Made by a program: the position numbers and the translations under genes. A stretch of DNA of 64,000 bases from Actinomycetota bacterium (GTDB lineage Bacteria > Actinomycetota > Actinomycetes > S36-B12 > UBA5976): NCBI GenBank assembly GCA_947452765.1, contig CANGDR010000002.1:24407-88406 (forward strand), read 5' to 3'. Below are positions 3,940 through 37,013 of this stretch, one piece after another (the first letter of the stretch is position 1; each line of letters opens with the position of its first letter). A model generated the notes under the pieces. That model did not search any database, had not been told where the DNA came from, and worked only from the letters and a program-made list of their open reading frames with translations.

Positions 3940-5172
3940 TTAACGCAAGAAGTCGGGAACGTCGAGATCATTCTCGTCGTCATCTTCAACAGCGCTCGAG
4001 TGCGTAGCAGCTGGCGCATCACCGAATAAATTATCGAAGTTGTCATCTTCTTCAGCTACTTGAACTGGGGCGCTACCAAAAGCGCCAGCATCAAACGAAG
4101 ACGGTGTTAATGGAATCGAAGGGGTCTGACCGTCTTCAGCTAAATCAACCGCGACTTTTGCAGCCAGGGGTGTTTCATCCATAATCCGCTTGGACATTGG
4201 AGAGGTTGAGCGATTTGAAGGTGGTGCACCACCATCAAAGCCAGCGGCAATAACAGTTACCTTGACTTGGTCGCCTTGCGTGTCGTCGATTACGGCTCCG
4301 AAAATAATGTTTGCATCAGGGTGCACTGCGCTTTGGACCATGCGAGCAGCCTCATTAATTTCGAACAAACCAAGATCACTTCCACCTGCGATGGACATCA
4401 AAACGCCTCGCGCACCTTCGATGCTGGCCTCCAGCAATGGACTCGAAATGGCTTGTCTGGCAGCTTCCATGGCCCGATCTGCACCACGCGCAGATCCGAT
4501 TCCCATTAGTGCGCTACCAGCATCTTTCATAACGCTCCGAACGTCAGCGTAGTCAAGGTTTATTAGGCCAGGGGTTGTAATTAGGTCGGTAATTCCGCTG
4601 ACACCTTGCAACAGGACTGAGTCCGCGTGCCGGAAAGCATCAATAACGCTAATACCGTTATCTGCAAGTTCCAATAGGCGATCGTTTGGAATAACAATCA
4701 ATGTGTCCACTTCGGAACGAAGTTGCTCTACACCTTCATCTGCCTGTGCAGAGCGACGCTTCCCTTCGAAACTGAAAGGTCGAGTTACAACGCCAATCGT
4801 AAGCGCTCCCATTTCGCGAGAAATTTTTGCCACGATAGGAGCGCCGCCCGTGCCAGTTCCCCCACCTTCTCCAGCCGTTACGAAAATCATGTCTGCGCCC
4901 CGCAGTACTTCTTCAATTTCTTCCCGATGATCTTCGGCAGCTTGTCGGCCTACTTCTGGATCCGCACCAGCGCCAAGTCCGCGAGTTAAGTCGCGACCTA
5001 TGTCTAGCTTTACGTCTGCATCACTCATCAGAAGTGCCTGGGCATCCGTGTTTATCGCTACGAACTCAACACCCTTTAAACCGGCTTCGATCATGCGATT
5101 AATTGCGTTAACGCCACCACCGCCGATACCAACAACTTTGATAACAGCTAGGTAGTTCTGTGGTGCAGCCAT
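3940..5172 (-). CDS. ftsZ: cell division GTPase FtsZ
   Basis: GIGGGGVNA and tubulin signature [12 protein letters not shown]. Acidic C-terminal tail ending DLDVPDFLR. Confidence 0.98.
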
Positions 5173-5313
5173 GACGCGGGCCTTTCTCGAAATTTCAAAA
5201 TGTGACTAACTCTAAACCTCAACAAGAGCGTTATAGTTATGTCAACCTAGGGCAAGTACAAGTTATTGCCAAAGCCTGCAATATCCCGTTAATTGGATTC
5301 GGTGTGTCGCAAC

Positions 5314-7404: not shown

Positions 7405-8472
7405 CTATGCCTTCCGAGCAACTGACAAGACTAAGTCTGCTAGATCGGAAGCGGAATTTTTGTGACCTAAGCCTTTACTGGCTTGTGCCATTTTTACCAA
7501 AGTACTTGGATCACTAACTAGTGGCAAAATCCGATCGCGTAGATAGTTAGCGGTGAGCTCTACGTCAGGAACCTGAATTGCGCCACCAGCTGCAACCACT
7601 GGCTCTGCATTCATACTTTGCTCACCATTGCCAATTGGAAGCGGCACAAAGCAAGCAGGAAGGCCAACGGCTGTCACCTCTGCCACCGTCATTGCGCCAG
7701 ATCTTGCAATTACAAAATCTGAAGCGGCGTAAGCCAAGTCCATTCGATCTATAAAATTCGCTGGATGATAAATATTTGAACTCTCTGCTGGAAAATCGTT
7801 CTTGATTCCAACTGAGTGAATGACATTAAATTTAGATAGCGATCCGTCTTGGATGCACTCACCAATTACGTCATTAAGTTTTTGAGCTCCCTGAGACCCC
7901 CCAAAAACCAAAATGCAAGTTGCCTCTGCGTCAATCCCAAAAGTCTTTCGCGCTTCCTTCCTCAGGGAAGCACGATCAAAAGTCTCGATACTTTTACGCA
8001 GCGGAATCCCGATGAGTTGAGCTCGCGGTAAACTTCCTGCGACAGTTTCCGCAACCGCATCCGCAAATCTCGCTCCTACCCGATTAGCTAAGCCTGCCCG
8101 GGCGTTTGCTTCGTGAACTACAATCGGCACTCCTCCGCGTGCTGCTAAATATGCAGGAATTGAAACGTAGCCACCGAATCCAACCAGGACGTCAGCCTCA
8201 AGTCGAGCGAGGATATCTTTTGTTTGCTTGATTGCAGATCGTAATCGTGTCGGCAAAGTAACTAAATCACCGTTTAATTTTCTTGGAAGTGGAACAGCTG
8301 GAATTAATTCAAGTTCATAACCGCGTGCGGGAACCAAATCAACTTCGAGTCCACGCACTGTGCCAAGCGCCGTAATCTTGATATTCGGATCTCGTAACCG
8401 AAGTTCGTCAGCCAAGTTAAGTGCGGGTTCGATATGACCCGCGGTGCCACCGCCAGCAAGAACTATATTCAT
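7405..8472 (-). CDS. murG: undecaprenyldiphospho-muramoylpentapeptide beta-N-acetylglucosaminyltransferase
   Basis: N-terminal G-loop MNIVLAGGGTAGHIEPAL, dcw position. ATG at 8472-8470 lies in the last copy of the junction repeat. Confidence 0.95.
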   Translation of the reverse strand: MNIVLAGGGTAGHIEPALNLADELRLRDPNIKITALGTVRGLEVDLVPARGYELELIPAVPLPRKLNGDLVTLPTRLRSAIKQTKDILARLEADVLVGFGGYVSIPAYLAARGGVPIVVHEANARAGLANRVGARFADAVAETVAGSLPRAQLIGIPLRKSIETFDRASLRKEARKTFGIDAEATCILVFGGSQGAQKLNDVIGECIQDGSLSKFNVIHSVGIKNDFPAESSNIYHPANFIDRMDLAYAASDFVIARSGAMTVAEVTAVGLPACFVPLPIGNGEQSMNAEPVVAAGGAIQVPDVELTANYLRDRILPLVSDPSTLVKMAQASKGLGHKNSASDLADLVLSVARKA

Positions 8473-8618
8473 GAGTTCTCCCGTGCCTCGAGAACTATAT
8501 TCATGAGTTCTCCTCTGCCTCGAGAACTATATTCATAAGTTCTACTGTACTTCGCGAACAATATTCATTAGTTCTCATGTACTTCGAGAACTATATTCAC
8601 GCGTTCTCCTGCGCCTCA
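8459..8618 (-). repeat. five head-to-tail copies of a 32-nt unit spanning the ftsW stop and murG start
   Basis: Units (+ strand): 8459-8490 agaactatattcatgagttctcccgtgcctcg; 8491-8522 agaactatattcatgagttctcctctgcctcg; 8523-8554 agaactatattcataagttctactgtacttcg; 8555-8586 cgaacaatattcattagttctcatgtacttcg; 8587-8618 agaactatattcacgcgttctcctgcgcctca. Confidence 0.95.
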
Positions 8619-9766
8619 TGCTTAGCAAAAGCCATCAAGATTCCCAGCCCCATAAGCGTAGGAACTAGCGATGACCCACCATAACTAACCAGGGGTAGCG
8701 GAACGCCAGTAATTGGCAGCAGCCCAAGCACAGCACCGATATTTACAAACGCTTGAGTCATAATCCAAGTGACAATTCCAAGAGTTGCTATCTGAATGAA
8801 TGCATCGTTGGTTCCGCGAGCAATTCGAATTCCGACAATGATGATCGCTGAAAACAGCAGCAATACTGAAATTGTTCCGAGTATTCCCAGCTCTTCACCA
8901 ATTACGGCATAAATAAAATCAGTATGAGCTTCCGGTAACGTACCCCATTTTTCTCGGGAACCGCCTAGTCCAACGCCCCACCAGCCACCGGTGCCCAGTG
9001 CCTGCTTACCGTGTGCAACCTGGAATCCAGTTCCTTGTGGGTCTGCACCAGGATGTAGCCACGAGGTGAAACGCTGCATCCGATACGGTGCGGCAATCGA
9101 TAGTGCAATAATTCCCGTGAAGGCAACGCCAGCCATCCAGGCAAACCATTGTTTTGGTGCTCCAACGAACCAGAGAAATGATGCCATTATCGGCATCATG
9201 ACCATTGCGGTTCCTAAGTCGCCTTCAGCTATAACTAGAAGTAAAACGATTCCGCATACTGGTGCGAGTGGCACAAGTAAGTTTCTACGTTCATCAATTA
9301 CGTGATATTTACGATCCAAAATTTCGGCAGCCCAAAGTACTATTGCTAATTTTGCGAACTCAGAAGGTTGAATGCGGATTGGGCCACCAAATTCAATCCA
9401 GTTTTTCTGGCCATGTGTAGCTGTACCTATAAATAGCACCGCAACGAGAAGAATTAAAACTCCCACCATAAAGAAAGGTGCAATTCTGCGAATAGTTTCT
9501 ACGCGTCGTTGGGAAAACCAAATCATAGACATCACACCAAGCACTGCGAAAATTAATTGACGAGTCGCAAGCGCCCAAGAATTGCCATTATTCATTTGGT
9601 AGGAGTAAACACTTGAGGCCGACGCAACCATTACTACGCCAAGAGAAAGAAGTAACCCGGTAGCACCAAGAAGTACTTGATAATGTGCCATTGGATGCGC
9701 GAGACGATCAGAAATCGAAACTTTTTCAGGTTCATGCGGCTTGCGCACTGGTTTAGTCGTAGCCAT
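8597..9766 (-). CDS. ftsW: SEDS-family peptidoglycan glycosyltransferase FtsW
   Basis: Polytopic membrane protein with ..PEAHTDFIYAVIGEELG.. motif, dcw position. Its start shares 1 nt with the murD stop (TAATG). Confidence 0.93.
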   Translation of the reverse strand: MATTKPVRKPHEPEKVSISDRLAHPMAHYQVLLGATGLLLSLGVVMVASASSVYSYQMNNGNSWALATRQLIFAVLGVMSMIWFSQRRVETIRRIAPFFMVGVLILLVAVLFIGTATHGQKNWIEFGGPIRIQPSEFAKLAIVLWAAEILDRKYHVIDERRNLLVPLAPVCGIVLLLVIAEGDLGTAMVMMPIMASFLWFVGAPKQWFAWMAGVAFTGIIALSIAAPYRMQRFTSWLHPGADPQGTGFQVAHGKQALGTGGWWGVGLGGSREKWGTLPEAHTDFIYAVIGEELGILGTISVLLLFSAIIIVGIRIARGTNDAFIQIATLGIVTWIMTQAFVNIGAVLGLLPITGVPLPLVSYGGSSLVPTLMGLGILMAFAKHEAQENA

Positions 9767-11217
9767 TATTTATCCAAATTTCTTACGGCTTGTACGAAAG
9801 CATCGCCACGTTCCGCATAGTCCCGATACATATCCCAGGATGCGCATCCAGGTGCCAATAAGACTGTGTCGCCTTCGGATGCCAACATGGCCGCCTTAGC
9901 TACAACTATCTCCATTGCATTAGTTTCCTTTGTGGCTACACGCTCAATTGGGACATTCGGTGCGTGTCGGGCTAGGGCCTGCGCGATATGGTCTTGATCG
10001 ACGCCCAAAAGCACCACACCCCGCATTCGATGGGCAGTATTAATGATCAATTCATCGAAATCTTGTCCCTTTGCCATCCCTCCAGCAATCCACACAACGG
10101 AACTGTATGCAGCAAGTGACGTTTCAGCCGCATGAGTATTAGTTGCCTTCGAATCGTCTACATAGTCAACGTTGGCAATCTTTGCAACATGCGCAATTCG
10201 GTGTGGCGCTGGCTCCCAAGCGCGCAGCCCGTCACGAATCGAGCGAGCATCCACACCATGAGCTCGTGCCAGGGCAGCTGCTGCCAGGGCATTACTGACA
10301 TTGTGTGCAGCTGGAATAGCAAGGTCAGATATTTCCGCAAGTTCCAGTGCGGCATCACGACGGTTTTCCAAGAAGGCACGATCTACTAAGTACTCTTCAA
10401 CAACGCCTAGCATTGACACGTCAGGAATTCCTAAGGTGAACCCAATTGCACGGCAGCCTTCAATAACTTCGGCTTGTTCAACCATCTGTACTGTTTCTGC
10501 ATCAGCCACATTAAATATTGCAGCGACTTGACAACGTTCGTAAATCCGCGCTTTTGCATTGCGATATGCTTCAAATGACCCAAAGATATCGATGTGATCA
10601 GGGGCTAGGTTCAAGCAAACTGCTGCCTGGGGTGAGATGGTGTGTACAAATGGCAGTTGCGGTGCGCCGACTTCGATAGCGAGAACATCCCATGGGGTTG
10701 GATCCATAACCACTTCGACTAACGAGCGGCCAATGTTGCCAGCAGCGACAGTTCGCTTTCCGGCAGCGAGCAAAATTGATTCCAACATCAAAGTAGTAGT
10801 GGTCTTTCCATTCGTTCCTGTTATAAGTAACCATGGTGCCAAATGCTGTGGATCTCGTAAGCGCCAAGCTAACTCAAGTTCACCCCAAATCGGTAAGTCG
10901 CTCTCCAGAGCAGACTTAACAATCGGTGCAAGCGGCGAAACTCCAGGCGAAAGCACTAGTAAGTCGATGTCAGCTGGTAAATCAGTGTCGTTACCCATTC
11001 GTACATCAGCACCAAGGATTTCTAAAATTGTCGCTCGTTCGTTTTGACGCTCACCTTCCGTTGTTGCCTCCAAAACAATTACTTGCGCGCCTAGGTTAAC
11101 TAACGCATCAGCTGCTGCGAATCCGGCAATACCTAGCCCCACCACACATACGCGTACATTCGACCAGTCACTGGTTCGATTTAAGTTAGAAATATCAAGG
11201 GAAGTCATCGCATGCAA
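9766..11217 (-). CDS. murD: UDP-N-acetylmuramoylalanine--D-glutamate ligase
   Basis: VVGLGIAGFAAA Rossmann N-terminus, ITGTNGKTTTT P-loop, dcw position. Confidence 0.93.
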   Translation of the reverse strand: MHAMTSLDISNLNRTSDWSNVRVCVVGLGIAGFAAADALVNLGAQVIVLEATTEGERQNERATILEILGADVRMGNDTDLPADIDLLVLSPGVSPLAPIVKSALESDLPIWGELELAWRLRDPQHLAPWLLITGTNGKTTTTLMLESILLAAGKRTVAAGNIGRSLVEVVMDPTPWDVLAIEVGAPQLPFVHTISPQAAVCLNLAPDHIDIFGSFEAYRNAKARIYERCQVAAIFNVADAETVQMVEQAEVIEGCRAIGFTLGIPDVSMLGVVEEYLVDRAFLENRRDAALELAEISDLAIPAAHNVSNALAAAALARAHGVDARSIRDGLRAWEPAPHRIAHVAKIANVDYVDDSKATNTHAAETSLAAYSSVVWIAGGMAKGQDFDELIINTAHRMRGVVLLGVDQDHIAQALARHAPNVPIERVATKETNAMEIVVAKAAMLASEGDTVLLAPGCASWDMYRDYAERGDAFVQAVRNLDK

Positions 11218-11223
11218 TCTCGC

Positions 11224-12291
11224 CTACTGGCGAACCCATTCCGCATAAAACATCGCCATACCTGCGCCGACACACAAACCTTGGATGATCCAGAAGCGAA
11301 CCACAATTTGAACTTCTGGCCAGCCTTTCATCTCAAAGTGATGGTGCAATGGAGCCATTCGGAGAACTCGTTTGCCAGTTAACTTATAAGATCCGACCTG
11401 TGCAATTACTGACAATGTAATAATTACAAACAGCCCACCAATCAAACCAAGTAAGAGTTCGGTACGAGTCATCAGTGCGAGGGCTGCTAAGGCACCGCCG
11501 AGCGCCAACGATCCGGTATCGCCCATAAAGATACGAGCCGGACTTGCATTCCACCAAAGAAATCCAAAACTTGCTCCGGCACATGCTGCCGCAAACACGG
11601 CAAGATCAAGTGGATCTCTAACCGTGTAACACCGCGCGAACTCACCCCAGAAGCAACTTTGTCCGTATTGCCAAATGCACATGATTGTGTAGGCCGTAAA
11701 TGAAACTAATGCTGCTCCCGTTGCTAAGCCATCTAGTCCATCAGTCAGATTTGTGCCATTAGTGATTCCAGTGATTAGAAACCAGATCCAAATTAGAATG
11801 ACAGCTCCTGGGAGCACCAATCGTGTATCACGGACCCAAGAAATCGCATTCGAGATTGGAAGCTTTCCACTTTCATCTGGGAACCTGGTGGCTAAATAAC
11901 CAAACGAAACTGCGGCTACTGCTTGTCCCAGCAATTTAGTCCTGGCTCTGATACCAGTACTGCGTTGCTTAAATATTTTTAAATAATCATCAGCTACGCC
12001 AACCAAACTAAGTGAAACCATTAAATAAATGGCAAGGTATCCCGACACAGTTGGTGGGCGCCAAACAATAAGGTGAGCTAAAAAGTAAGCCAAGATCACC
12101 GAGATAACTATTGCTACTCCACCCATGGATGGGGTGCCACGCTTGCTCCCATGTTCTGGATAAAGTACATCTTCAGTTGATTCCCGAATTGCCTGCGCAA
12201 TTCCCCGCTTATGGAGGAAATTAATTAAAAGCGGCGTGCCGATTAAAGTGAAGAGCGCGGCGAGTCCGCCTGCAAGCACAACTAACTTCAC
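11224..12291 (-). CDS. mraY: phospho-N-acetylmuramoyl-pentapeptide transferase
   Basis: ADDYLKI and NGTNLTDGLDGLA motifs. I prefer the GTG at 12291-12289, which forms a GTGA overlap with the murF stop, over the ORF-track ATG at 12315. Confidence 0.9.
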   Translation of the reverse strand: MKLVVLAGGLAALFTLIGTPLLINFLHKRGIAQAIRESTEDVLYPEHGSKRGTPSMGGVAIVISVILAYFLAHLIVWRPPTVSGYLAIYLMVSLSLVGVADDYLKIFKQRSTGIRARTKLLGQAVAAVSFGYLATRFPDESGKLPISNAISWVRDTRLVLPGAVILIWIWFLITGITNGTNLTDGLDGLATGAALVSFTAYTIMCIWQYGQSCFWGEFARCYTVRDPLDLAVFAAACAGASFGFLWWNASPARIFMGDTGSLALGGALAALALMTRTELLLGLIGGLFVIITLSVIAQVGSYKLTGKRVLRMAPLHHHFEMKGWPEVQIVVRFWIIQGLCVGAGMAMFYAEWVRQ

Positions 12292-13715
12292 TTTGAGCTC
12301 CCCTTCGATGTCCACTTAGCGACTAATCGTGACTCGATGTCCTCGGCTAGTACTTCAAACTTTTCAGCTCGGGAAGCCTTAAAGATAATGACATCGCCAG
12401 GTTGTATCTCATTGACAATGTAGTCGGATGCCTGCGCAAAGTCGGGATACCACACCGATTCGCCATCCCCATTCAACACTTGAGTTGCACCCAAATAGAT
12501 AGGCCGTGCTTGATTCCCAATTGAAACGATGTGTGAAACGTTAAGGTCAACTGCTAAGCGACCAATTCGATCGTGTTCGGAAACTTCTACATCGCCCAGT
12601 TCGTGCATTGCTCCGAGAACTGCCCAAGTTCGGCCCAGGCGTGGAATGCTCACCAAAGTTTTTAACGCAGCAGCCATCGATTCTGGATTAGCGTTATAAG
12701 AATCATTAATTAGCAAAACGTCGTGGGGCAAGTCATGAACTTCCATCCGCCATTTGCTTACTTGCTTTGTTTGCTCAAGTGCACTGACGATCTCCTGTAG
12801 TGACATCCCAGAGATTAGTCCAACGGCAGTTGCTGCTAGCGCATTAGAAACATTGTGTTCACCCAGCATTGGAAGTGTTGCAGGAACACGTTTTCCCTCA
12901 AACACCAAGTCAAATGTATAAGTTCCATTCTGAGTGATTGCTAAATTTTCTCCCCGGACGTCAGCGAAATCCGAAAACCCAAAGGTGACTGATCTTGCTG
13001 AAGTAAGCTCCTGCATATTTCGCACGAGCGGGTCATCCGCATTGAGTACGGCAAAACCAGTTTCTGGCAGAGACTCAATCAACTCACCCTTAGCTTGGGC
13101 TATCCCATGCATCGAACCAACTTCGCCTATATGTGCTTGTCCGACATTTGTTACGACCCCAATATTTGGTTTTGCGATATTGCACAAATATTTAATGTGT
13201 CCAAGGCCACGCATACCCATTTCTAAAACTAAATACTCAGTATCAGTTGGTGCACTAAGTATCGTTAGTGGCATTCCTAATTCATTATTAGGTGAACCTA
13301 CCGGCGCTTGGGTGACTCCATGGGTGTTCAAAACTTGACCAATCAAATCTTTAGTCGAAGTTTTTCCTGAAGATCCCGTTATCCCAATCACGGAAACATC
13401 TGCCATTTTGGCCCGTTGCGCCTTAGCAATTAATCCGACAGCAACTATTACCGAATCCAAAGGGTCGGAGTTGGTCGGAATCAAAATATAGTTACCTGAG
13501 ACAGGTTTTGTTGCCAAGGTTGCAAGGGCACCTGATGCAAGTGCTTGCTCGACACAATTATGGCCATCAGTACGTTCACCGACTATCGCGCAGAATAGGT
13601 CCCCTGACTTAATCGATCGAGAGTCAGTTGAAATCCCCGTCACAACAAAAGTGCTGTCCCCGAAGACTTCACCGCCAACAATTTCAGCCAACTCAGCTAA
13701 CGAGAAGTTATACAT
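12288..13715 (-). CDS. murF: UDP-N-acetylmuramoyl-tripeptide--D-alanyl-D-alanine ligase
   Basis: GITGSSGKTSTKD P-loop. Likely start is MYNFSLAELAEIVGG at 13715, an 8-nt overlap with the murE stop. Confidence 0.92.
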   Translation of the reverse strand: MYNFSLAELAEIVGGEVFGDSTFVVTGISTDSRSIKSGDLFCAIVGERTDGHNCVEQALASGALATLATKPVSGNYILIPTNSDPLDSVIVAVGLIAKAQRAKMADVSVIGITGSSGKTSTKDLIGQVLNTHGVTQAPVGSPNNELGMPLTILSAPTDTEYLVLEMGMRGLGHIKYLCNIAKPNIGVVTNVGQAHIGEVGSMHGIAQAKGELIESLPETGFAVLNADDPLVRNMQELTSARSVTFGFSDFADVRGENLAITQNGTYTFDLVFEGKRVPATLPMLGEHNVSNALAATAVGLISGMSLQEIVSALEQTKQVSKWRMEVHDLPHDVLLINDSYNANPESMAAALKTLVSIPRLGRTWAVLGAMHELGDVEVSEHDRIGRLAVDLNVSHIVSIGNQARPIYLGATQVLNGDGESVWYPDFAQASDYIVNEIQPGDVIIFKASRAEKFEVLAEDIESRLVAKWTSKGSSK

Positions 13716-15201
13716 TGGCGGACTCCGCGACAATCACTTTACGATCGTCAAAGTCTGTGATGACACCATTTACTTCTTGGCCGGTCTCGTGTCCCTTTCC
13801 TAAAACTGCAACTACATCTCCAGCTTTTGCTTGAGCCAATGCATAACGAATGGCTTCACGCCGATTCCCAATTTCGATAAGTTGGGCATCACCTTGACGG
13901 GCGCCCGCTAATACTGCAGCGCGAATCTTTGCCGGATCTTCACTTCGTGGGTTGTCATCCGTGATCACCACCAAGTCTGATAATTCGGAGGCTGCCCTAC
14001 CCATCAACGGACGCTTTGCAGAATCTCTGTCGCCTCCGCAACCTAAGACCGCAATAATCCGAGTTGGATTTGAATCACGAATAACTTGCAAAACCGTAGT
14101 AACTGCATCAGGGGTGTGGGCGTAATCGACGACAGCCGTGCCGAGAGCCTGATGTGTAACAACTTCAAATCGTCCTGGAATTGGTCGGATATTGCGAAGG
14201 GAATTTAACGCGTCGACTTGATCTGTTCCTAGTAATTCCACAACAGCAAGTGCCATGGCAGCATTTGTGGCATTAAACGAGCCAAACATATTTATTTCGA
14301 GAGCAATTTTTGTGGTTGCCGTTGTTATCGTTACCGCCGTAACCCCAGGTTTTGCATATTTGGCTTTGCTGAGGCTCCAATCCCCGAAAGCCCCAACTGT
14401 GAGCCTTGGAATCTGGATCGCTGAAGCCAGCTTTTGACCCCAAGCTTCATCGACTCCAATAATCGCCCTCTTAGCGTGCTCCGAAGTAAATAGCGAAGCT
14501 TTAGCTTGGAAATATGAATCCATATCTCCGTGGAAGTCAAGATGGTCTTGTGTCAGGTTTGTAAAAACTGCCACGTCAAAGGACAATCCAGTGACTCGAT
14601 GCAAGACAAGTGCGTGGCTTGAGACTTCCATAAAAACTGTCTTGACTCCGCGATCGACCATAACTGCAAGTAGGGCGAATAGATCTGTGGATTCTGGTGT
14701 AGTTCGAACTCCAGGTATGGATTCCTCGTTTATGAATGTGCCAAGAGTTCCAATGACGCCGACACTTTTCTTTGCATCCAAGAAAATGGATCGCAACATG
14801 TGAGTCGTTGTAGTTTTACCGTTGGTCCCAGTCACTCCCACCAAAGAAAGTTTTTTCTGGGGGTTGCCATAAATATGCGCGGCGAGTAAGGCCATGTCGT
14901 GGCGGACATCAGACAAAAGTAAATTTGGAATTCCATTGCTGGTAGCTACTGCTACCCCATGCTCGTCACTTGCAATTGCAACTGCACCACGTGCTATTGC
15001 CTCCGCTATAAATTCAACTCCGTGGTGATTCTCTCCAGGTACCGCAACATATAAATCACCAGCTAGAACATCTTTGGAATTATGCGTGATGCCAGTAATT
15101 GATATTTCATTGCTTGTTGCTTCGGCTACAAGCCCTGGGCCCGTAACAAGTATTGCTAGCTCACGCAAAGAAGTAGCGCCAACAATTGGTCTAAGCGTCA
15201 T
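13708..15201 (-). CDS. murE: UDP-N-acetylmuramoyl-L-alanyl-D-glutamate--2,6-diaminopimelate ligase
   Basis: GVTGTNGKTTTT P-loop and DDNPRSEDP motif. Likely start is the ATG at 15201, preceded by GAGG. Confidence 0.92.
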   Translation of the reverse strand: MTLRPIVGATSLRELAILVTGPGLVAEATSNEISITGITHNSKDVLAGDLYVAVPGENHHGVEFIAEAIARGAVAIASDEHGVAVATSNGIPNLLLSDVRHDMALLAAHIYGNPQKKLSLVGVTGTNGKTTTTHMLRSIFLDAKKSVGVIGTLGTFINEESIPGVRTTPESTDLFALLAVMVDRGVKTVFMEVSSHALVLHRVTGLSFDVAVFTNLTQDHLDFHGDMDSYFQAKASLFTSEHAKRAIIGVDEAWGQKLASAIQIPRLTVGAFGDWSLSKAKYAKPGVTAVTITTATTKIALEINMFGSFNATNAAMALAVVELLGTDQVDALNSLRNIRPIPGRFEVVTHQALGTAVVDYAHTPDAVTTVLQVIRDSNPTRIIAVLGCGGDRDSAKRPLMGRAASELSDLVVITDDNPRSEDPAKIRAAVLAGARQGDAQLIEIGNRREAIRYALAQAKAGDVVAVLGKGHETGQEVNGVITDFDDRKVIVAESANV

Positions 15202-15211
15202 CGGGACCTCG

Positions 15212-17023
15212 TCACCAGCCAACAGGAATCTTTGGTGGCCTGGTTTTTGTTGGTGGAATCTTTTGCTGAGCTAGCGCATAAGTCATAATCTTTTTAAAGA
15301 CTGGTCCGGCAACGGTGCTACCAAAGTGACCGTTAACTGGATTGTGAATCATGACAGCAATCACAAGTGATGGATTTTCGGCCGGCGCCATTCCAATGAA
15401 CGATGCGGTATATCCGCTATATCCGCGGGTAGCAGCATCATATTTATTTGCAGTACCGGTCTTGCCAGCTATTCGATAACCAGCAATCTGGGCATCAGGT
15501 GCCGTGCCGTCTGCCGACACTACACTTTCCAACATTTCACGAACAGTCTTGGCGGTAGCTGCACTGACCACTTTAACTCCGGGTACAGGTGAGTTCGGCT
15601 CGAATTTCCCGTCGTTACCTACATAGCCTGCTATCAATCGAGGCTTCATCCGAACTCCGTCATTTGCAATAGTTGCGAAAACGGAGGCCGCCTGAATCGC
15701 GTTCACGGATAGGCCCTGACCAAATGCGAGAGTTGGGAATGTTGTGCCAGACCAATCCTTAAGTGCAGGAAGTAAACCGGCACTTTCACCTGGAAAATTC
15801 ATTCCAGTAAAGTCTCCAATTCCAAACTTCTTCAAGTAGCCATAAAATTTCTTTTCACCAATAGCTTCAGCGGCCAAGATTGATCCCATATTGCTGGACT
15901 TAGCAAGAACACCGTTGAGAGTTAAGTGCAGAACCCCGTGCTTATCGTGATCGTGAAATGTGGTGCCTGCTCTCGGTAAGCCTGCCGGGATTGTGAACTT
16001 TGACATCGGGGTGAAGGCACCCTCCTCGATAACTGCTGCCATCGTCATAACCTTGCTTGTGGATCCAGGTTCGAATACGTCAGTTACTGCTGGGTTGCGT
16101 TTAGTTTGATCGCTTGTAGCAAAAGGGTCATTGGGATCAAATGTTGGATATGTAGCGAGTGCGATTATGTCGCCAGTTCTCGGATCCATAACGACAACGT
16201 CGCCACCTTTTGCACCAGACTTAGTAACTTCATCAGCGAGTGCTCGTTCTGCCATAGCCTGGACATCGCGATCGATGGTTAGTCTCGTGGAAATTCCGTT
16301 GGTTGGGTCAATGCTCTGACGTTCGCTGGTAGGAATTTCCCGACCATGTACGCGCTCGACCGTTAAAGTGCCGTCCGTGCCAGATAGTTGTTTGTCTAGG
16401 CCGTATTCGAGACCACCTAGTCCGTGACCTTCGGCGCCTACGTACCCAACTACGTTTGCCGCTAGTGCGCCGTTTGGATAGGAGCGCTTCGTTGTTGGTT
16501 CGCTGAAAATTCCTGGAATTCCAAGTGCAGCAATTGCCTTCCACGCATCAGGAGTGATTTGCTTTGCCACATAGTTGAACCGTTTGTCACCTGTAATTAG
16601 TTCAGTGACTTTTTTGACCGGAAGCCCGAGTAGCGGCGCAAGAACAGTGGCAGTTCCTGCTGGATCTTTAATCAAAGTTTGATCAACTGTTACATTGCGC
16701 GCCATAATCGTCGTTGCAATTGCTACCCCATTTGCATCTGTAATGGTTCCACGTAGTGCTGGTAGCACCAAAGTTTGCAATCTTGAGTTCTGGGCAGCCG
16801 CAGCGAGAGCTGGACCTTGGACGATTTGCAGATCTATTAACCGCGTAAAGAACAAAGACAAAACCATCAAAAAAACGACCGTCGTAAATCTAATCCGCTT
16901 ATGTGGACTTTGCAGATTCAACATAATCGGACCGGTAGGAACGGGAGCCGTTCCGCGCATTTGTAGCAGCCGAGGTTTTTGGTCTGGTTGCTGCGAAGGG
17001 CGAATTGGACTTTGGGTACTCAT
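15212..17023 (-). CDS. ftsI: class B penicillin-binding protein (division transpeptidase FtsI)
   Basis: N-terminal TM. SxxK (GSTSKVMT), SxN (KSSNMG) and KTG (GKTGTA) boxes. dcw position. Confidence 0.93.
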   Translation of the reverse strand: MSTQSPIRPSQQPDQKPRLLQMRGTAPVPTGPIMLNLQSPHKRIRFTTVVFLMVLSLFFTRLIDLQIVQGPALAAAAQNSRLQTLVLPALRGTITDANGVAIATTIMARNVTVDQTLIKDPAGTATVLAPLLGLPVKKVTELITGDKRFNYVAKQITPDAWKAIAALGIPGIFSEPTTKRSYPNGALAANVVGYVGAEGHGLGGLEYGLDKQLSGTDGTLTVERVHGREIPTSERQSIDPTNGISTRLTIDRDVQAMAERALADEVTKSGAKGGDVVVMDPRTGDIIALATYPTFDPNDPFATSDQTKRNPAVTDVFEPGSTSKVMTMAAVIEEGAFTPMSKFTIPAGLPRAGTTFHDHDKHGVLHLTLNGVLAKSSNMGSILAAEAIGEKKFYGYLKKFGIGDFTGMNFPGESAGLLPALKDWSGTTFPTLAFGQGLSVNAIQAASVFATIANDGVRMKPRLIAGYVGNDGKFEPNSPVPGVKVVSAATAKTVREMLESVVSADGTAPDAQIAGYRIAGKTGTANKYDAATRGYSGYTASFIGMAPAENPSLVIAVMIHNPVNGHFGSTVAGPVFKKIMTYALAQQKIPPTKTRPPKIPVGW

Positions 17024-17481
17024 TACTTAGCACCCGCCACTGCTCGCACAGGCTTTCCCAAAATTGTCTGATCTGACAGCCGCAAAAAAACTGGTGATTG
17101 AGCTGGAACCATACCCATAGATTGCGCAGATGTAATCAAAGCTTCTGGTGACTCACCAGCGACCACTAAGTTTGAAATAGATTGCTCGTCTGCAGTCATT
17201 TGAGCCAACTGCATTTGTAATGAATGCTTCTGAAATGAAGATTGGGCTGCCAATGTGTTTACAAAAAGCAGCAGCATCATTCCCGAAATAATGATTCCCA
17301 AAATTACAAACAGGAATGTCCGATTACTCGCCCGACCTTGAGGTACTGAAATCGGGATTGCTTGCGCGATTGGCGAAACAATTGGCTTAACCATCGGCTT
17401 AACTAAGGCGAGCCTTCGCATCGCCTTAGACTTTCGAGGGATTGGTGCTAATGCGGGGGTGCGAGCTGGCATGGCACTCAT
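17023..17481 (-). CDS. ftsL: FtsL-like single-pass division protein
   Basis: 152 aa with one TM ([19 protein letters not shown]) followed by a short heptad-like stretch. Occupies the ftsL slot. ATGA overlap with rsmH and TAATG overlap with ftsI. Confidence 0.7.
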
Positions 17482-18431
17482 GCGGCGACTCCAATCCGCT
17501 GAGCGGCCCGAAGCCGGACCGAAGTTGCGCGAGAATTCTCAGCAATCTCTTTCTCACTTGCCGGTTCGGATCCGCGAGTTAAAAGTTGTAGCCAAGGCTT
17601 ATCGGTATCTGGGACAAAAGGCATATCAACGGGAGTGGTGCTTTCAGTTCCTACCCGGAGTGCATTTTTAGCTATGCGGTCTTCCAGGGAGTGGTACGAA
17701 AGGATGACGATTCGACCATTCATTGCCAAGACATCTAGTGCCGCTGGAATAGCGCGCTCTAGGACAACTAGCTCTTCATTGACTTCTATTCGAAGCGCTT
17801 GGAATGTTCGCTTTGCTGGATTTCCGCCAGTGCGACGGGTTGCGGCTGGAATTGCATCCCGTACGACTGCAACCAATTGGTCGCTGTTTGTGAATGGTCG
17901 AAGTTCCCGTTCCTTGATGATGGCATTTGCTACTCGACCAGCAAAACGCTCTTCGCCATAGACCTTAAGGATGCGTGCCAAGTTTGCAAAGTCATATGTA
18001 TTGACAACGTCGGCTGCAGTTTGCCCCACAGTTCCGTTCATTCGCATATCTAGTGGTGAATTACGGGAATACGCAAAGCCGCGATCGTCTTTATCTAACT
18101 GCATTGACGAGACACCTAAGTCAAACAGAATTCCTTGTACCGATTCGATTCCCAATTTGGAAAGCTCATCAGCAATTTCGTCATAAACTGCATGCACAAA
18201 ATCGACGCGAGGTGCAAAGCGCGCTAAGCGAGTCCTAGATATGTCAAGAGCTTCTGGGTCGCGATCGAAACCAACAACTCTAAGGTTTGGAAATTCCTCC
18301 AGCGCGGACTCAGTGTGGCCACCTAAACCAAGTGTGGCGTCTACCAAAATTGCTCCATCAGCACTAATGGCTGGCGCTAAAAGGTCCAGGCAGCGTTGCC
18401 GCAAAACTGGAACGTGCGCGAATGTAGACAT
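17478..18431 (-). CDS. rsmH: 16S rRNA (cytosine1402-N4)-methyltransferase
   Basis: [10 protein letters not shown] and [10 protein letters not shown] motifs, position after mraZ. Confidence 0.95.
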
Positions 18432-34543: not shown

Positions 34544-35383
34544 ATGGCCGCAATACTCCTATCCCTAATAAGTGCAGTTCTCTATGGGCTAGGTGATTTT
34601 TGGGGAGCGCTTGCATCTCGGCGTTCGCACATCTTGCAGGTTCTACCTGCAATCTTGATTTCTGGAACTTTAACGGTTTACTTACTGATTCCATGGCTTG
34701 GCGCCGACTTCACGCCTGATGCAATTAAGTTCGGAGTTGCGAGTGGATTCTTTGGCGGCGCAGGATTCTTTATCTTTTACCGCGCACTTGCTATCGGACC
34801 TATGGGAATTGCCAGCGCAATCATCGCTATTGTTTCCACTGCAATCATGTACATAGTTGATGTGTTAAAAGGAACTAGCGTAACTCCATTAGGAATTGCG
34901 GGTGCAATCGTCGCTATGCTTTCCATCGTTTTAGTTTCAAAATCAACCGAAGATGCAACCCATCCAGTAACCGCAAAAATGGTAAAAGCTGCCGTCTTCG
35001 CTGGGGTAATTGTTTCTGGCTTCTTCATGTTGTTGGCTTATGCACCGAAAGATGTTGGCGTGGCAACTTTTGTCTGCACTCGTACTACGCAACTGGTTCT
35101 AATACTTGCCGCAGCATTTATCTGGCGAAATAAGATCACCCGAGGCGCGAAGCCTAAACTGGCAATGTCAGTTGGGGCGGGCGTAGGCGACGCACTTGCT
35201 GCAGTTGCATTTATCTTTGCTAATCACACAGGTTCACTTGCTTTTGTTGCCGTTATTTCAAACTTATATCCAGCAGTTACCTTGATAATTGCGCACTTTG
35301 TTATTCATGAGCGCGTTGAGCGACATCAATATATTGGCATGGCTGGAGCAGTTGCTTCGGTTGCTCTTCTAACGCTGGCCTAA
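34544..35383 (+). CDS. DMT-superfamily (EamA-like) transporter
   Basis: 279 aa and polytopic. Clearly alignable with the 37157-37993 paralog (..GDFWGALASRRSHILQVLP.. vs ..GDYWGGLATRHSPLLKVLP..). Confidence 0.7.
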   Translation: MAAILLSLISAVLYGLGDFWGALASRRSHILQVLPAILISGTLTVYLLIPWLGADFTPDAIKFGVASGFFGGAGFFIFYRALAIGPMGIASAIIAIVSTAIMYIVDVLKGTSVTPLGIAGAIVAMLSIVLVSKSTEDATHPVTAKMVKAAVFAGVIVSGFFMLLAYAPKDVGVATFVCTRTTQLVLILAAAFIWRNKITRGAKPKLAMSVGAGVGDALAAVAFIFANHTGSLAFVAVISNLYPAVTLIIAHFVIHERVERHQYIGMAGAVASVALLTLA

Positions 35384-35447
35384 GCGGCCGAGATTCTAAC
35401 TCTGGCCTAAGCGGCCGTGATTCTAACTCTGGCCTAAGTAAGCCAAG
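35367..35447. repeat. 27-nt tandem repeat (about 2.7 copies) duplicating the transporter 3' end and stop codon
   Basis: ttctaacgctggcctaagcggccgaga / ttctaactctggcctaagcggccgtga / ttctaactctggcctaagtaagccaag. The period is exactly 27 (ttctaac at 35367, 35394, 35421). Confidence 0.9.
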
Positions 35448-36186
35448 ATTTAATTTGGTATCCAGCGTCAGTCAGAGTCTGGTGAATCGAAGCAGCTGAG
35501 GCGACTGCCCCAGGAGTATCGCCATGCAGGCAAATGGATTCTGCCAATACTGAAACTGGAGTCGCTTCGTTAGATGCAATTACGCCAGTTTCCAACCACT
35601 GCAAAACCCGCTTTGATATTTCCGCTTCATCTTCCAAAACTGAACCACTTACGGTTCGTGGAACGAGCGTTCCCACTGGTAAGTAGGCGCGATCAGCGAA
35701 GAATTCATGTACCGAAGTTAGGCCAGCTTCACTTGCTACGGACTTTGTCATTTCAGAGTCAGGAATTAGCACATGAAGTGTGGCGTCAATGTCTGCAATC
35801 GCATCTATCACTGCCTGTGCCTGGGATTTATCGTGTCCCATTCGGTGATACAAAGCGCCATGTGGTTTGACGTACTTCATTTCGCCGCCAGCTAGTTTTA
35901 CAATTTCCAGCAAATCGTTAATTTGATCGAAAACCAATTTGCGTAAATCTTCATAGGAAATTTCTACATCGATTCGGCCAAAGTTTTCCCGGTCGTCATA
36001 TCCAACGTGGGCCCCGATGACTACACCATGTCGAATTGCAGCCTCGACAGCTTTACTCATGGAATCTGGACCGCCGGCATGCCGACCGCAACAAATATTC
36101 GCGCTCGATAAGTACTGGTACATCGCCTCATCATCGCCACACTCTTCGGCTAGATCAGCGTTTAGGTCTATTCGGGTTACGCCCAT
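35434..36186 (-). CDS. pxpA: LamB/YcsF family protein (5-oxoprolinase subunit A-like, PxpA)
   Basis: IDLNADLAEECGDD..SSANICCGRHAGGP..GAHVGYDD motifs. Likely start ATG 36186 overlaps the upstream gene by 10 nt. Confidence 0.8.
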   Translation of the reverse strand: MGVTRIDLNADLAEECGDDEAMYQYLSSANICCGRHAGGPDSMSKAVEAAIRHGVVIGAHVGYDDRENFGRIDVEISYEDLRKLVFDQINDLLEIVKLAGGEMKYVKPHGALYHRMGHDKSQAQAVIDAIADIDATLHVLIPDSEMTKSVASEAGLTSVHEFFADRAYLPVGTLVPRTVSGSVLEDEAEISKRVLQWLETGVIASNEATPVSVLAESICLHGDTPGAVASAASIHQTLTDAGYQIKSWLT

Positions 36187-37013
36187 GGTTTTGCCTTCAA
36201 ACCATGGCGTCCGGCATACTGCGCGAATTCCGGCTGCTTCCAACCGGCAAGCAATGAATCGGTTGGCTTAAAGACTTCAATCCCGAGCGGGCGACATACA
36301 TCCACCGGATCTTTTGCATCTGGTCCCCACAGTGGAACTGATAGATCGCCACCAGGGCAAGTAGAGAGGGCTGCGATTAAATCGATCTCTGCGAAGAATT
36401 CAAAGTAGTCGCCTTTTTTAGCTGGGCAAGTTTTCATGAAGTATTGATCTTTGTCATTTAGGCCGGTGCACTGGAAAACGTTTAGTACGTCATGTACGTC
36501 GAATTCCGTCATACCAAAAGGAAGTACAGCTCGGACTAAGTTGGAATGACAGTGATAATCAAAATCCTCACCAGTCAACATGCGATTTACGTAAGGGTCG
36601 CAGCGAGTTCCCAAAAGATCGTGGACTCTCCCGCCTTCGTTATCTACTCCGTAATTTTCTAATGTGTCAGCAACGATGGTTGCCATCGGGCGTAGGTAAG
36701 GCAGCGTGGACCAAAGGCGGTTAAAGGTAGTTAGGTGGGCTGCGTGTAGTTGCTTAGTGCGCGAGGCCCAAAACCGCTCCCTTGGGTTATCTGCACTCCA
36801 CAGATTTAGGTCTGCAACTTGTGGACCTTCGATGGTTGTAATGCGACAAACTGATCCGGCAGGAATCTTCCAGCCAATGCCACTACGGATTGGCAAGTGG
36901 ATCGATTCGGTTAACTTGCGCGCGCCATCATTGGCAATTGCGCGGTAAAAGTCGCGATCGACATCTAAGGGGCCACCTTCAGTGGCTTGGTATGCAGCAG
37001 CTGTTAAGTCCAT
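36177..37013 (-). CDS. DUF1989 (urea-carboxylase-associated) family protein
   Basis: Pattern ..IEGPQVADLNLW.., ..HDLLGTRCDPY.., ..CHSNL.., ..GDYFEFFAEIDLIAALSTCPGGD.. matches my recollection of DUF1989. Confidence 0.65.
   Translation of the reverse strand: MDLTAAAYQATEGGPLDVDRDFYRAIANDGARKLTESIHLPIRSGIGWKIPAGSVCRITTIEGPQVADLNLWSADNPRERFWASRTKQLHAAHLTTFNRLWSTLPYLRPMATIVADTLENYGVDNEGGRVHDLLGTRCDPYVNRMLTGEDFDYHCHSNLVRAVLPFGMTEFDVHDVLNVFQCTGLNDKDQYFMKTCPAKKGDYFEFFAEIDLIAALSTCPGGDLSVPLWGPDAKDPVDVCRPLGIEVFKPTDSLLAGWKQPEFAQYAGRHGLKAKPWA

Follow-up and report, generated by a model that had tools for sequence, protein, structure and literature searches.

Tandem copies of the ftsW/murG junction in the division and cell wall cluster of an actinobacterial genome

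The array at the ftsW/murG junction

An array of five tandem 32-nt repeats located between ftsW and murG was analyzed in a 64,000-nt stretch of an Actinomycetota genome (assembly GCA_947452765.1, contig CANGDR010000002.1, positions 24,407 to 88,406), which is called the window here and whose own numbering is used for all coordinates. The minus strand of the window, whose G+C content is ~48–49%, carries an actinobacterial-type division and cell wall (dcw) cluster. Matches to NCBIfam named rsmH, ftsI, murF, mraY, murD, ftsW, murG, murC, ftsQ and ftsZ in this cluster; ftsL, murE, sepF, divIVA and the other remaining open reading frames (ORFs) of the run were labelled by position only. The ftsW gene (8597..9766, minus strand; 389 aa) matched TIGR02614 with an E of 1.4e-113, and the C-terminus of its product, ...AKHEAQENA*, is colinear with those of its relatives; its last six codons and TGA stop (8599–8597) lie inside the first repeat unit. 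The murG gene (7405..8472, minus strand; 355 aa, ATG start) matched TIGR01133 with an E of 3.5e-77, aligned from residue 1.

Tandem Repeats Finder detected a 32-nt repeat at 8459–8617 with 5.0 copies, 83% matches, 0 indels and a score of 213, by far the strongest tandem repeat of the window. On the minus strand, five head-to-tail copies of the junction between the ftsW stop and the murG start span positions 8458–8617, in agreement with the initial annotation of this DNA, which had described five such copies made up of the last ftsW codons and the first five murG codons; this composition of the unit held on inspection. The 22-nt core GAGAACTCATGAATATAGTTCT had five matches in the window at up to three mismatches, all of them inside the array, versus none expected from 100 shuffles. 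Head-to-tail copies of a unit of this length, within the range of ~10–100 bp, are those of a minisatellite or variable number tandem repeat (VNTR), and the codons of the MurG G-loop (GCTGGCGGTGGC...) lie directly 3' of the array.

The units were numbered from ftsW towards murG, all on the minus strand. Unit 1 (8586..8617, GAGGCGCAGGAGAACGCGTGAATATAGTTCTC) contains the true end of ftsW and an ancestral-type GTG start (8600–8598) in a GTGA overlap. Unit 2 (8554..8585, GAAGTACATGAGAACTAATGAATATTGTTCGC) has an ATG at 8568, a Shine-Dalgarno (SD) sequence weakened to TGAG and a broken inverted repeat, and unit 3 (8522..8553, GAAGTACAGTAGAACTTATGAATATAGTTCTC; ATG 8536) has lost its SD (GTAG) through one G>T change, which also makes the TAG that terminates the second of the mini-ORFs described below. 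Unit 4 (8490..8521, GAGGCAGAGGAGAACTCATGAATATAGTTCTC) retains an intact SD (GGAG), an ATG at 8504 and a 7-bp inverted repeat, and unit 5 (8458..8489, GAGGCACGGGAGAACTCATGAATATAGTTCTT) provides the working ribosome-binding site of murG (GGGAG) and its ATG (8472–8470). The initial annotation had attributed a GGAGAAC word to every unit, which is accurate for units 1, 4 and 5, but unit 2 reads TGAGAAC and unit 3 GTAGAAC; likewise, the AGAAC-N11-GTTCT inverted repeat assigned to each unit is intact in four of the five, unit 2 having GTTCG.

Four mini-ORFs on the minus strand lead from ftsW to murG, and all of them were found on the sequence exactly where they had been placed. Mini-ORF 1 (8568..8600, VNIVLEVHEN) begins with GTG 8600, which overlaps the ftsW stop (GTGA), and its TAA (8570–8568) overlaps ATG 8568 (TAATG), from which mini-ORF 2 (8542..8568, MNIVREVQ) runs to a TAG (8544–8542) that lies 5 nt before the next ATG. 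Mini-ORF 3 (8501..8536, MNIVLEAEENS) begins at ATG 8536 and ends with a TGA in an ATGA overlap with ATG 8504, the start of mini-ORF 4 (8469..8504, MNIVLEARENS), whose own TGA overlaps the murG ATG at 8472 in the same manner and whose last codons hold the murG SD (GGGAG). The successive stop–start gaps are −4 (ftsW to mini-ORF 1), −1, +5, −4 and −4 nt, i.e. three of the four steps within the array overlap and one leaves a gap of 5 nt; every upstream stop overlaps or lies a few nucleotides from the downstream start, as in translationally coupled genes.

This geometry can be derived from the period of the repeat. At a GTGA overlap, murG is read one base out of register with ftsW and, because 32 ≡ 2 (mod 3), the murG frame of one unit becomes the ftsW-tail frame of the next; by the same frame arithmetic, the ORF of a unit reads murG codons 2–5, continues into the copied ftsW tail and ends at the copied stop. 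Among the three classes of period, this one alone would give an overlapping chain of mini-cistrons, since a period ≡ 0 would fuse peptides to the N-terminus of MurG and one ≡ 1 would send ribosomes out of frame past the murG start. Read in this way, each unit appears as a putative mini-cistron of 8–11 codons, with its start codon 5 nt downstream of an SD-like GGAG and its stop overlapping the following start or almost adjoining it.

Elsewhere in the dcw cluster, the overlap words given by the initial annotation (GTGA at murF/mraY, TAATG at murD/ftsW and ftsL/ftsI, ATGA at rsmH/ftsL) were all verified, and intergenic gaps are mostly of −4 to +6 nt. The statement that only the ftsW/murG junction is expanded stands from rsmH to ftsQ, but not beyond, as the mraZ–rsmH (148 nt) and ftsQ–ftsZ (141 nt) gaps are also long. 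The first of these gaps, which precedes rsmH at the head of the cluster, contains an mraW RNA motif (RF01746; 18441–18546, minus strand; 66.1 bits, E 6.8e-12). Most of the dcw genes in 3940–5313 and 7405–18431 (minus strand) have no clear SD and follow one another with overlaps or with these short gaps; the best SD matches among the listed start regions of the run were those of murG (GGGAG) and the putative sepF (AGGAG).

Copy-number variation and origin of the array

Exact MurG sequences were found on 15 public contigs and exact FtsW sequences on 21. An identical 5-unit array was present in ENA, Logan, JGI and NCBI metagenome-assembled genome (MAG; GCA_947450265.1) assemblies from different samples, and in total five units were counted in the window and at least six assemblies, whereas four units were found in three contigs (L007, L009 and L196) and were tied to distinct MurG variants. 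One 4-unit allele, in which units 4 and 5 are merged into a single unit, was recovered in two independent assemblies (Logan SRR24390646 and JGI 3300045707) that share one MurG variant, 99.2% identical to that of the window, while strain L196 (MurG 98%) carries another complete 4-unit allele. Further unit variants occur in L013, L015, L122 and L197. Copy number therefore differs between strains of one species, as is typical of VNTRs, and the suggestion of a copy-number-variable locus in the initial annotation is borne out by 5- and 4-unit alleles in independent assemblies, each linked to its own MurG variant; both alleles encode intact FtsW and MurG.

Five contigs of the window species end inside the array (L013, L014, L015 and L197 at their 3' ends, L122 at its 5' end); these repeated endings make it a recurrent contig break point, whose flanks are often binned separately. 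Such endings mark a locus that is hard to assemble, and they would be in keeping with an assembler having inflated a single junction, a concern that had been raised from the outset. Against this, different assemblers and samples (ENA MEGAHIT-style, Logan, JGI and NCBI MAG) gave the same five units, the divergence among units permits only one order, two independent data sets tie the 4-unit allele to a MurG variant of its own, and sister lineages possess unit variants of their own. With the probability of an artefact being close to nil, it is excluded as the source of the array and very unlikely to account for the difference between four and five units.

Relatives were sought to place the array in its phylogenetic context. 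In an alignment-based scan, the best species-representative genomes, Candidatus Nanopelagicales-type freshwater MAGs, reached only 74–75% MurG identity, and the species of the window was absent from these hits; a single-protein search of the species-representative genomes with MurG gave no match. Three closer lineages (L098–L101; MurG 77–78%) have one junction each, with the ftsW TGA overlapping a GTG start of murG in a GTGA (e.g. ...CAGGAGAATTCGTGAATATAGTTCTCGCAGG and ...CATGAGGCCCAGGAGAATTCGTGAATATAGTTCTCGCAGGC), to which unit 1 of the window is orthologous. The 4-nt GTGA overlap postulated as the ancestral state is thus exactly what the three closest single-copy lineages display. More than 60 further relatives have ftsW–murG gaps of −4 to about +16 nt, a few of them up to ~59 nt, without any repeat.

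Arrays of the same period of 32 nt were found in two sister lineages, one represented by L096 and L097 (MurG 88.5%; four and three units, respectively, with internal units GCGTTTAGAGAGAACTCATGAATATAGTTCTG) and the other by L159 (MurG 87.6%; three units, with internal units TTTATAGGGGAGAACTCGTGAATATAGTTCTC). In L096, L097 and L159 alike, every step of the array is −4, a perfect (A/G)TGA overlap. A further relative detected through FtsW (P0125) has a 60-nt gap, equivalent to three units as judged from gene coordinates alone. The middle residues of the mini-ORF products are wholly different between lineages (LEAEENS, LAFRENS and LFIGENS), and functional mini-peptides were ruled out on these grounds.

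The three array lineages are 86.5–88.5% identical to one another in MurG versus at most 79% to any single-copy lineage, and this closeness makes a single origin in their common ancestor parsimonious. Their murG start is ATG throughout, GTG being used in the close single-copy relatives; as the array lineages form one clade, the switch to ATG counts as one event and not as three. A scan of metagenomes with the unit pattern returned 93 stretches, of which two were murG-linked arrays (L122 and L159) and 91 were chance single matches in unrelated contigs. Given that the motif was found at no other locus in the window or in the metagenome scan, the array is a locus-specific and not an interspersed minisatellite, and a mobile or interspersed element was ruled out by the same absence of other copies together with the orthology of the unit to the local single-copy junction.

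Most likely, the array arose once, by repeated tandem duplication in the ancestor of a small freshwater clade of Candidatus Nanopelagicales-type actinobacteria; slippage or unequal exchange would have turned it over since then, adding new copies at the murG-proximal end. Repeated rounds of duplication had been proposed from the similarity of the two murG-proximal units; these units differ at three positions rather than the two reported, and the proposal fits both the gradient of similarity among units and the 4-unit allele that lacks the duplication of units 4 and 5.

Short ORFs ahead of murG were also observed outside the array lineages. About 17 species-level relatives (MurG 71–75%) have a 6-codon ORF, M-x-W-N/K-x-x, bridging ftsW and murG at about position 1980–2003 of the locus. 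Its stop overlaps the murG GTG (GTGA) except in L018, and its start overlaps the ftsW stop in 12 of the lineages (TAATG in L017, L019–L025 and L027; ATGA in L018, L030 and L086); L031–L034 and L046 also carry the bridging ORF just upstream of murG. The TGGAA within this ORF may double as the murG SD. Since some 17 relatives carry it, translation of murG right after a very short upstream ORF appears common in the family, the array being an iterated form of this arrangement. Many of the database MurG entries P0004–P0084 (361, 367 and 372 aa) have 6–17 extra N-terminal residues (e.g. MRHTCRNKNNDLEVS) before VNIVLAGGG; these extensions are probably start-codon miscalls, in which the murG frame is read back into the 3' end of ftsW, the true start being the GTG at VNIVL.

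A second minisatellite was noted at 35367–35438 on the plus strand (27 nt, 2.7 copies, 95% matches), each unit of which has a GGCC...GGCC palindrome. What is duplicated is the end of an EamA-family transporter gene (34544–35383), with its last codons and TAA stop, and the repeat sits between this gene and a convergent LamB/YcsF gene (35434–36243, minus strand); its sequence is identical in two other assemblies (L198 and L199). The two loci suggest a genome prone to tandem duplications of ~30 nt at gene ends.

Suggested constraint on the internal units and a possible translational relay

The anatomy of the array fits the suggestion that the MurG:FtsW ratio is set by a relay of termination and reinitiation or by an attenuator, which is mechanistically plausible. 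In such a relay, the array would be transcribed within the dcw operon mRNA, and ribosomes ending ftsW would reinitiate at the GTG of unit 1, the ancestral murG start; termination–reinitiation would hand them on from unit to unit, fresh ribosomes would also load at the SD-bearing units, and their passage would open the inter-unit helices in which the SD and start of murG are otherwise paired with units upstream. In this way murG would gain an ATG/SD start of its own, set apart from ftsW, with each start placed behind a short leader cistron, so that translational coupling would be kept despite an insertion of 124 nt and copy number could modulate MurG output. Coupling is strongest at small stop–start distances and proceeds through RNA unfolding, reinitiation or both (PMC12548453), and in bicistronic designs, also developed for Rhodococcus species, a leader ORF contains the second SD and ends in a stop that overlaps the start of the gene behind it, which is translated mainly through reinitiation and the helicase action of the ribosome (bioRxiv 10.1101/2023.02.09.527918).

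From the arrangement of starts and stops, we infer that the mini-ORFs may be translated and may affect the level of MurG, and consider it reasonably probable that ribosomes use the relay and that it matters for murG translation. Serial translational coupling through the mini-cistrons, by which murG translation would be preserved and possibly tuned, is the likeliest mechanism. We are clearly more doubtful about the stronger proposal of a selected, copy-number-tunable relay, a natural multi-stage bicistronic design, and equally tentative about its corollary, that populations adjust MurG:FtsW stoichiometry by gaining or losing 32-nt units and that this device has been kept since before the split of the three lineages.

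Neutral slippage at a hairpin-prone junction is the main rival explanation. It shares the anatomy and the origin of the array with the relay and differs from it only on whether the internal units matter: translation of murG would simply start afresh from the unit-5 SD and ATG, without any effect of the internal units on expression, and the array would persist only because expansion balances contraction. We regard this account as possible, though on balance unlikely. Comparison of the non-first units of the three lineages showed that positions 10–31 (SD, start codon and codons 2–5) are almost invariant and positions 1–9 essentially random or saturated. At four-fold degenerate sites of murG the three array lineages differ by 0.55–0.62, near saturation, and yet the array survived in all of them and the internal cores differ across species at only 0–1 of 22 sites versus ~13 expected if neutral (P < 1e-6). 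Within the window array as well, the core evolves more slowly than the spacer, with 6/44 differences in the core and 8/18 in the spacer when units 2 and 3 are compared with unit 4 (Fisher p = 0.017), and the start codon at positions 18–20 is kept in 19 of 19 distinct units. No allele with fewer than three units, i.e. with one or two, was seen among the array lineages sampled. In addition, ribosome entry is almost certain at the GTG of unit 1, the ancestral working start of murG, which has both an SD and the overlap, and the 124-nt insert is conspicuous in the compact genomes of the group. Constraint on the internal units is suggested, but not proven, by these comparisons.

Several observations weigh against the relay, some of them in favor of neutral slippage. 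The overlaps between units are not an independent sign of selection, because they arise automatically when an (A/G)TGA junction is duplicated at a period ≡ 2 mod 3, the geometry of the relay following from the period by arithmetic. Units 2 and 3 of the window species have decayed in SD (unit 3), ORF end (unit 2) and inverted repeat (unit 2), and the lack of an SD in unit 3, together with the premature TAG that ends the unit 2 ORF, speaks against a strict relay; the murG-proximal SD of the sister lineage L096 is only AGAG. Internal units may have been copied recently from the murG-proximal unit, in which murG itself constrains the core, and turnover combined with such constraint on the terminal unit can mimic conservation of the core. 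Conservation at synonymous sites of the same murG codons (AAC/AAT ATA GTT CT) extends to single-copy relatives, unit sequence differs freely among strain alleles, and the difference of three versus four units within the sister lineage of L096 and L097 could be an assembly collapse, since two of the units are identical. The minisatellite at 35367–35438, also at a gene stop, would agree with a general mutational propensity.

The synonymous conservation of murG codons 2–5 (8458–8469, minus strand; AAC/AAT ATA GTT CTC, including the usually rare ATA) was also seen in L016–L034 and L098–L101. Lineages that share these start codons are otherwise 55–70% diverged at four-fold sites, which points to the start region of murG having been constrained at the nucleotide level before the repeat arose.

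Folding predictions were obtained for single units and for whole arrays. The initial annotation had placed the start codon of each unit in a hairpin loop; the inverted repeat is there, but single-unit hairpins are weak or modest (from −2.6 to −7.4 or, at most, −9.3 kcal/mol) and mostly not significant against shuffles. All of the 5' arms (GAGAAC) can pair with all of the 3' arms (GTTCTC) across the array, and because the arms can pair with one another the whole array folds well below shuffled controls: the window array reached −66.2 kcal/mol (z = −4.33), with the murG SD and start paired with unit 3 in the minimum-free-energy structure, and that of L159 had z = −3.13, versus z = +0.08 for a single-copy junction. 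The predicted folding fits a need for ribosome passage to expose the murG start. As evidence for the relay it is weakened by the L096 array, which is not unusually stable (z = −1.32), by the fact that any repeat with an internal palindrome beats its shuffles, and by the absence of covariation in the array stems.

The same folding energies could be explained by a structural element of the mRNA, a stable multi-helix block that would give the ftsW-proximal and the murG-distal part of the dcw transcript different stability or processing, in the manner of repetitive extragenic palindromic (REP) sequences or bacterial interspersed mosaic elements (BIMEs). We consider this very improbable, given the points just listed and the lack of any Rfam family at 8458–8617, the mraW RNA being the sole Rfam match of the window; moreover, the loop with the start codon is the most conserved part, pointing to translation.

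A role at the DNA level, as internal promoters or regulator-binding sites for murG through ftsZ spaced at 32 bp (~3 helical turns), was also considered. Units have a 5–7-bp inverted repeat, and four of the five contain TATAGT, a TANNNT −10-like word from which transcription would begin in the spacer, shortly before the following SD; a relay would not obviously require the observed conservation of positions 22–29, and in M. tuberculosis mRNA level correlates with the repeats of the mycobacterial interspersed repetitive unit (MIRU) type that precede fpg (PMC2734929). Scans of the array for sigma-70-type promoters and for terminators found neither, the −35 positions land in the variable spacer, and single-copy relatives conserve the same murG codons (AACATAGTTCT) without forming a TANNNT from them. 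The half-sites GAAC and GTTC resemble those of a LexA box, whose consensus spaces them by N4; with the N11 found here, this candidate was ruled out. We hold a DNA-level role to be very improbable.

Relation to known systems and significance

No paper on a repeat between ftsW and murG was found in the literature library searched. The nearest natural analogue of the array, as far as the accounts in PMC3184786 and PMC2734929 describe it, is the MIRU-VNTR (Supply et al. 1997, via these sources), tandem units of 40–100 bp between operon genes for which differential translation within a polycistron has been proposed. Both are actinobacterial, tandem, tens of bases long, located within an operon, co-oriented and variable in copy number, and the small ORFs that overlap the neighboring genes in MIRUs (PMC3184786) have their counterparts here, mini-ORF 1 overlapping the ftsW stop and mini-ORF 4 the murG start. 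By the same accounts, however, MIRUs are dispersed at ~41 loci and may have arrived by insertion. The unit of the array is shorter (32 bp) and derived from the local ftsW/murG junction, a derivation that leaves no sequence relationship to MIRUs to be expected, and it is not interspersed, its five core matches in the window all falling inside the array and murG-linked arrays being the only ones in the metagenome scan. By analogy, the array would work like a MIRU, without being a member of the MIRU family.

Units 4 and 5 before murG have the same layout as the synthetic bicistronic design, as this is presented in a later account (Mutalik et al. 2013, via bioRxiv 10.1101/2023.02.09.527918), with the downstream SD inside the 3' end of a short, putatively translated leader ORF and a stop–start overlap (TAATG or ATGA) between leader and gene. 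Unlike that design, the array is natural, would iterate the arrangement up to four times with leaders of 8–11 codons, and has no defined strong context for a first SD. Overlapping coupled gene pairs (ATGA, GTGA and TAATG; PMC12548453) are the type to which the ancestral ftsW/murG junction and most dcw junctions belong; in contrast to ordinary pairs, the array multiplies the junction, and coupling across it would need several reinitiation events. With contingency loci it shares a hypermutable tandem repeat beside a gene and copy numbers that vary among strains. Its unit, however, is far longer than the typical 1–8-nt repeats of such loci, and a graded effect would be the most to expect, with no change of promoter spacing and no on/off switch; as the first unit holds the ftsW stop and the last one the murG start at any copy number, neither reading frame is ever shifted, and the array is not a phase-variable locus.

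The array is an operon-junction minisatellite with overlapping mini-ORFs, which has been kept over a species-level time span and is currently polymorphic, and its locus is usable as a strain-typing marker. If the relay works, it would constitute a natural experiment in serial termination–reinitiation, with a start site repeated three to five times in an essential operon, and the allelic series of one, three, four and five units that exists in related wild genomes would be valuable mainly as a test bed for reinitiation. It would also show that coupled overlapping genes can be separated without loss of coupling, and that evolution reached the leader-cistron layout designed by synthetic biologists. 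The ratio of FtsW to MurG matters for septal peptidoglycan synthesis, and the host group is among the most abundant freshwater bacteria.

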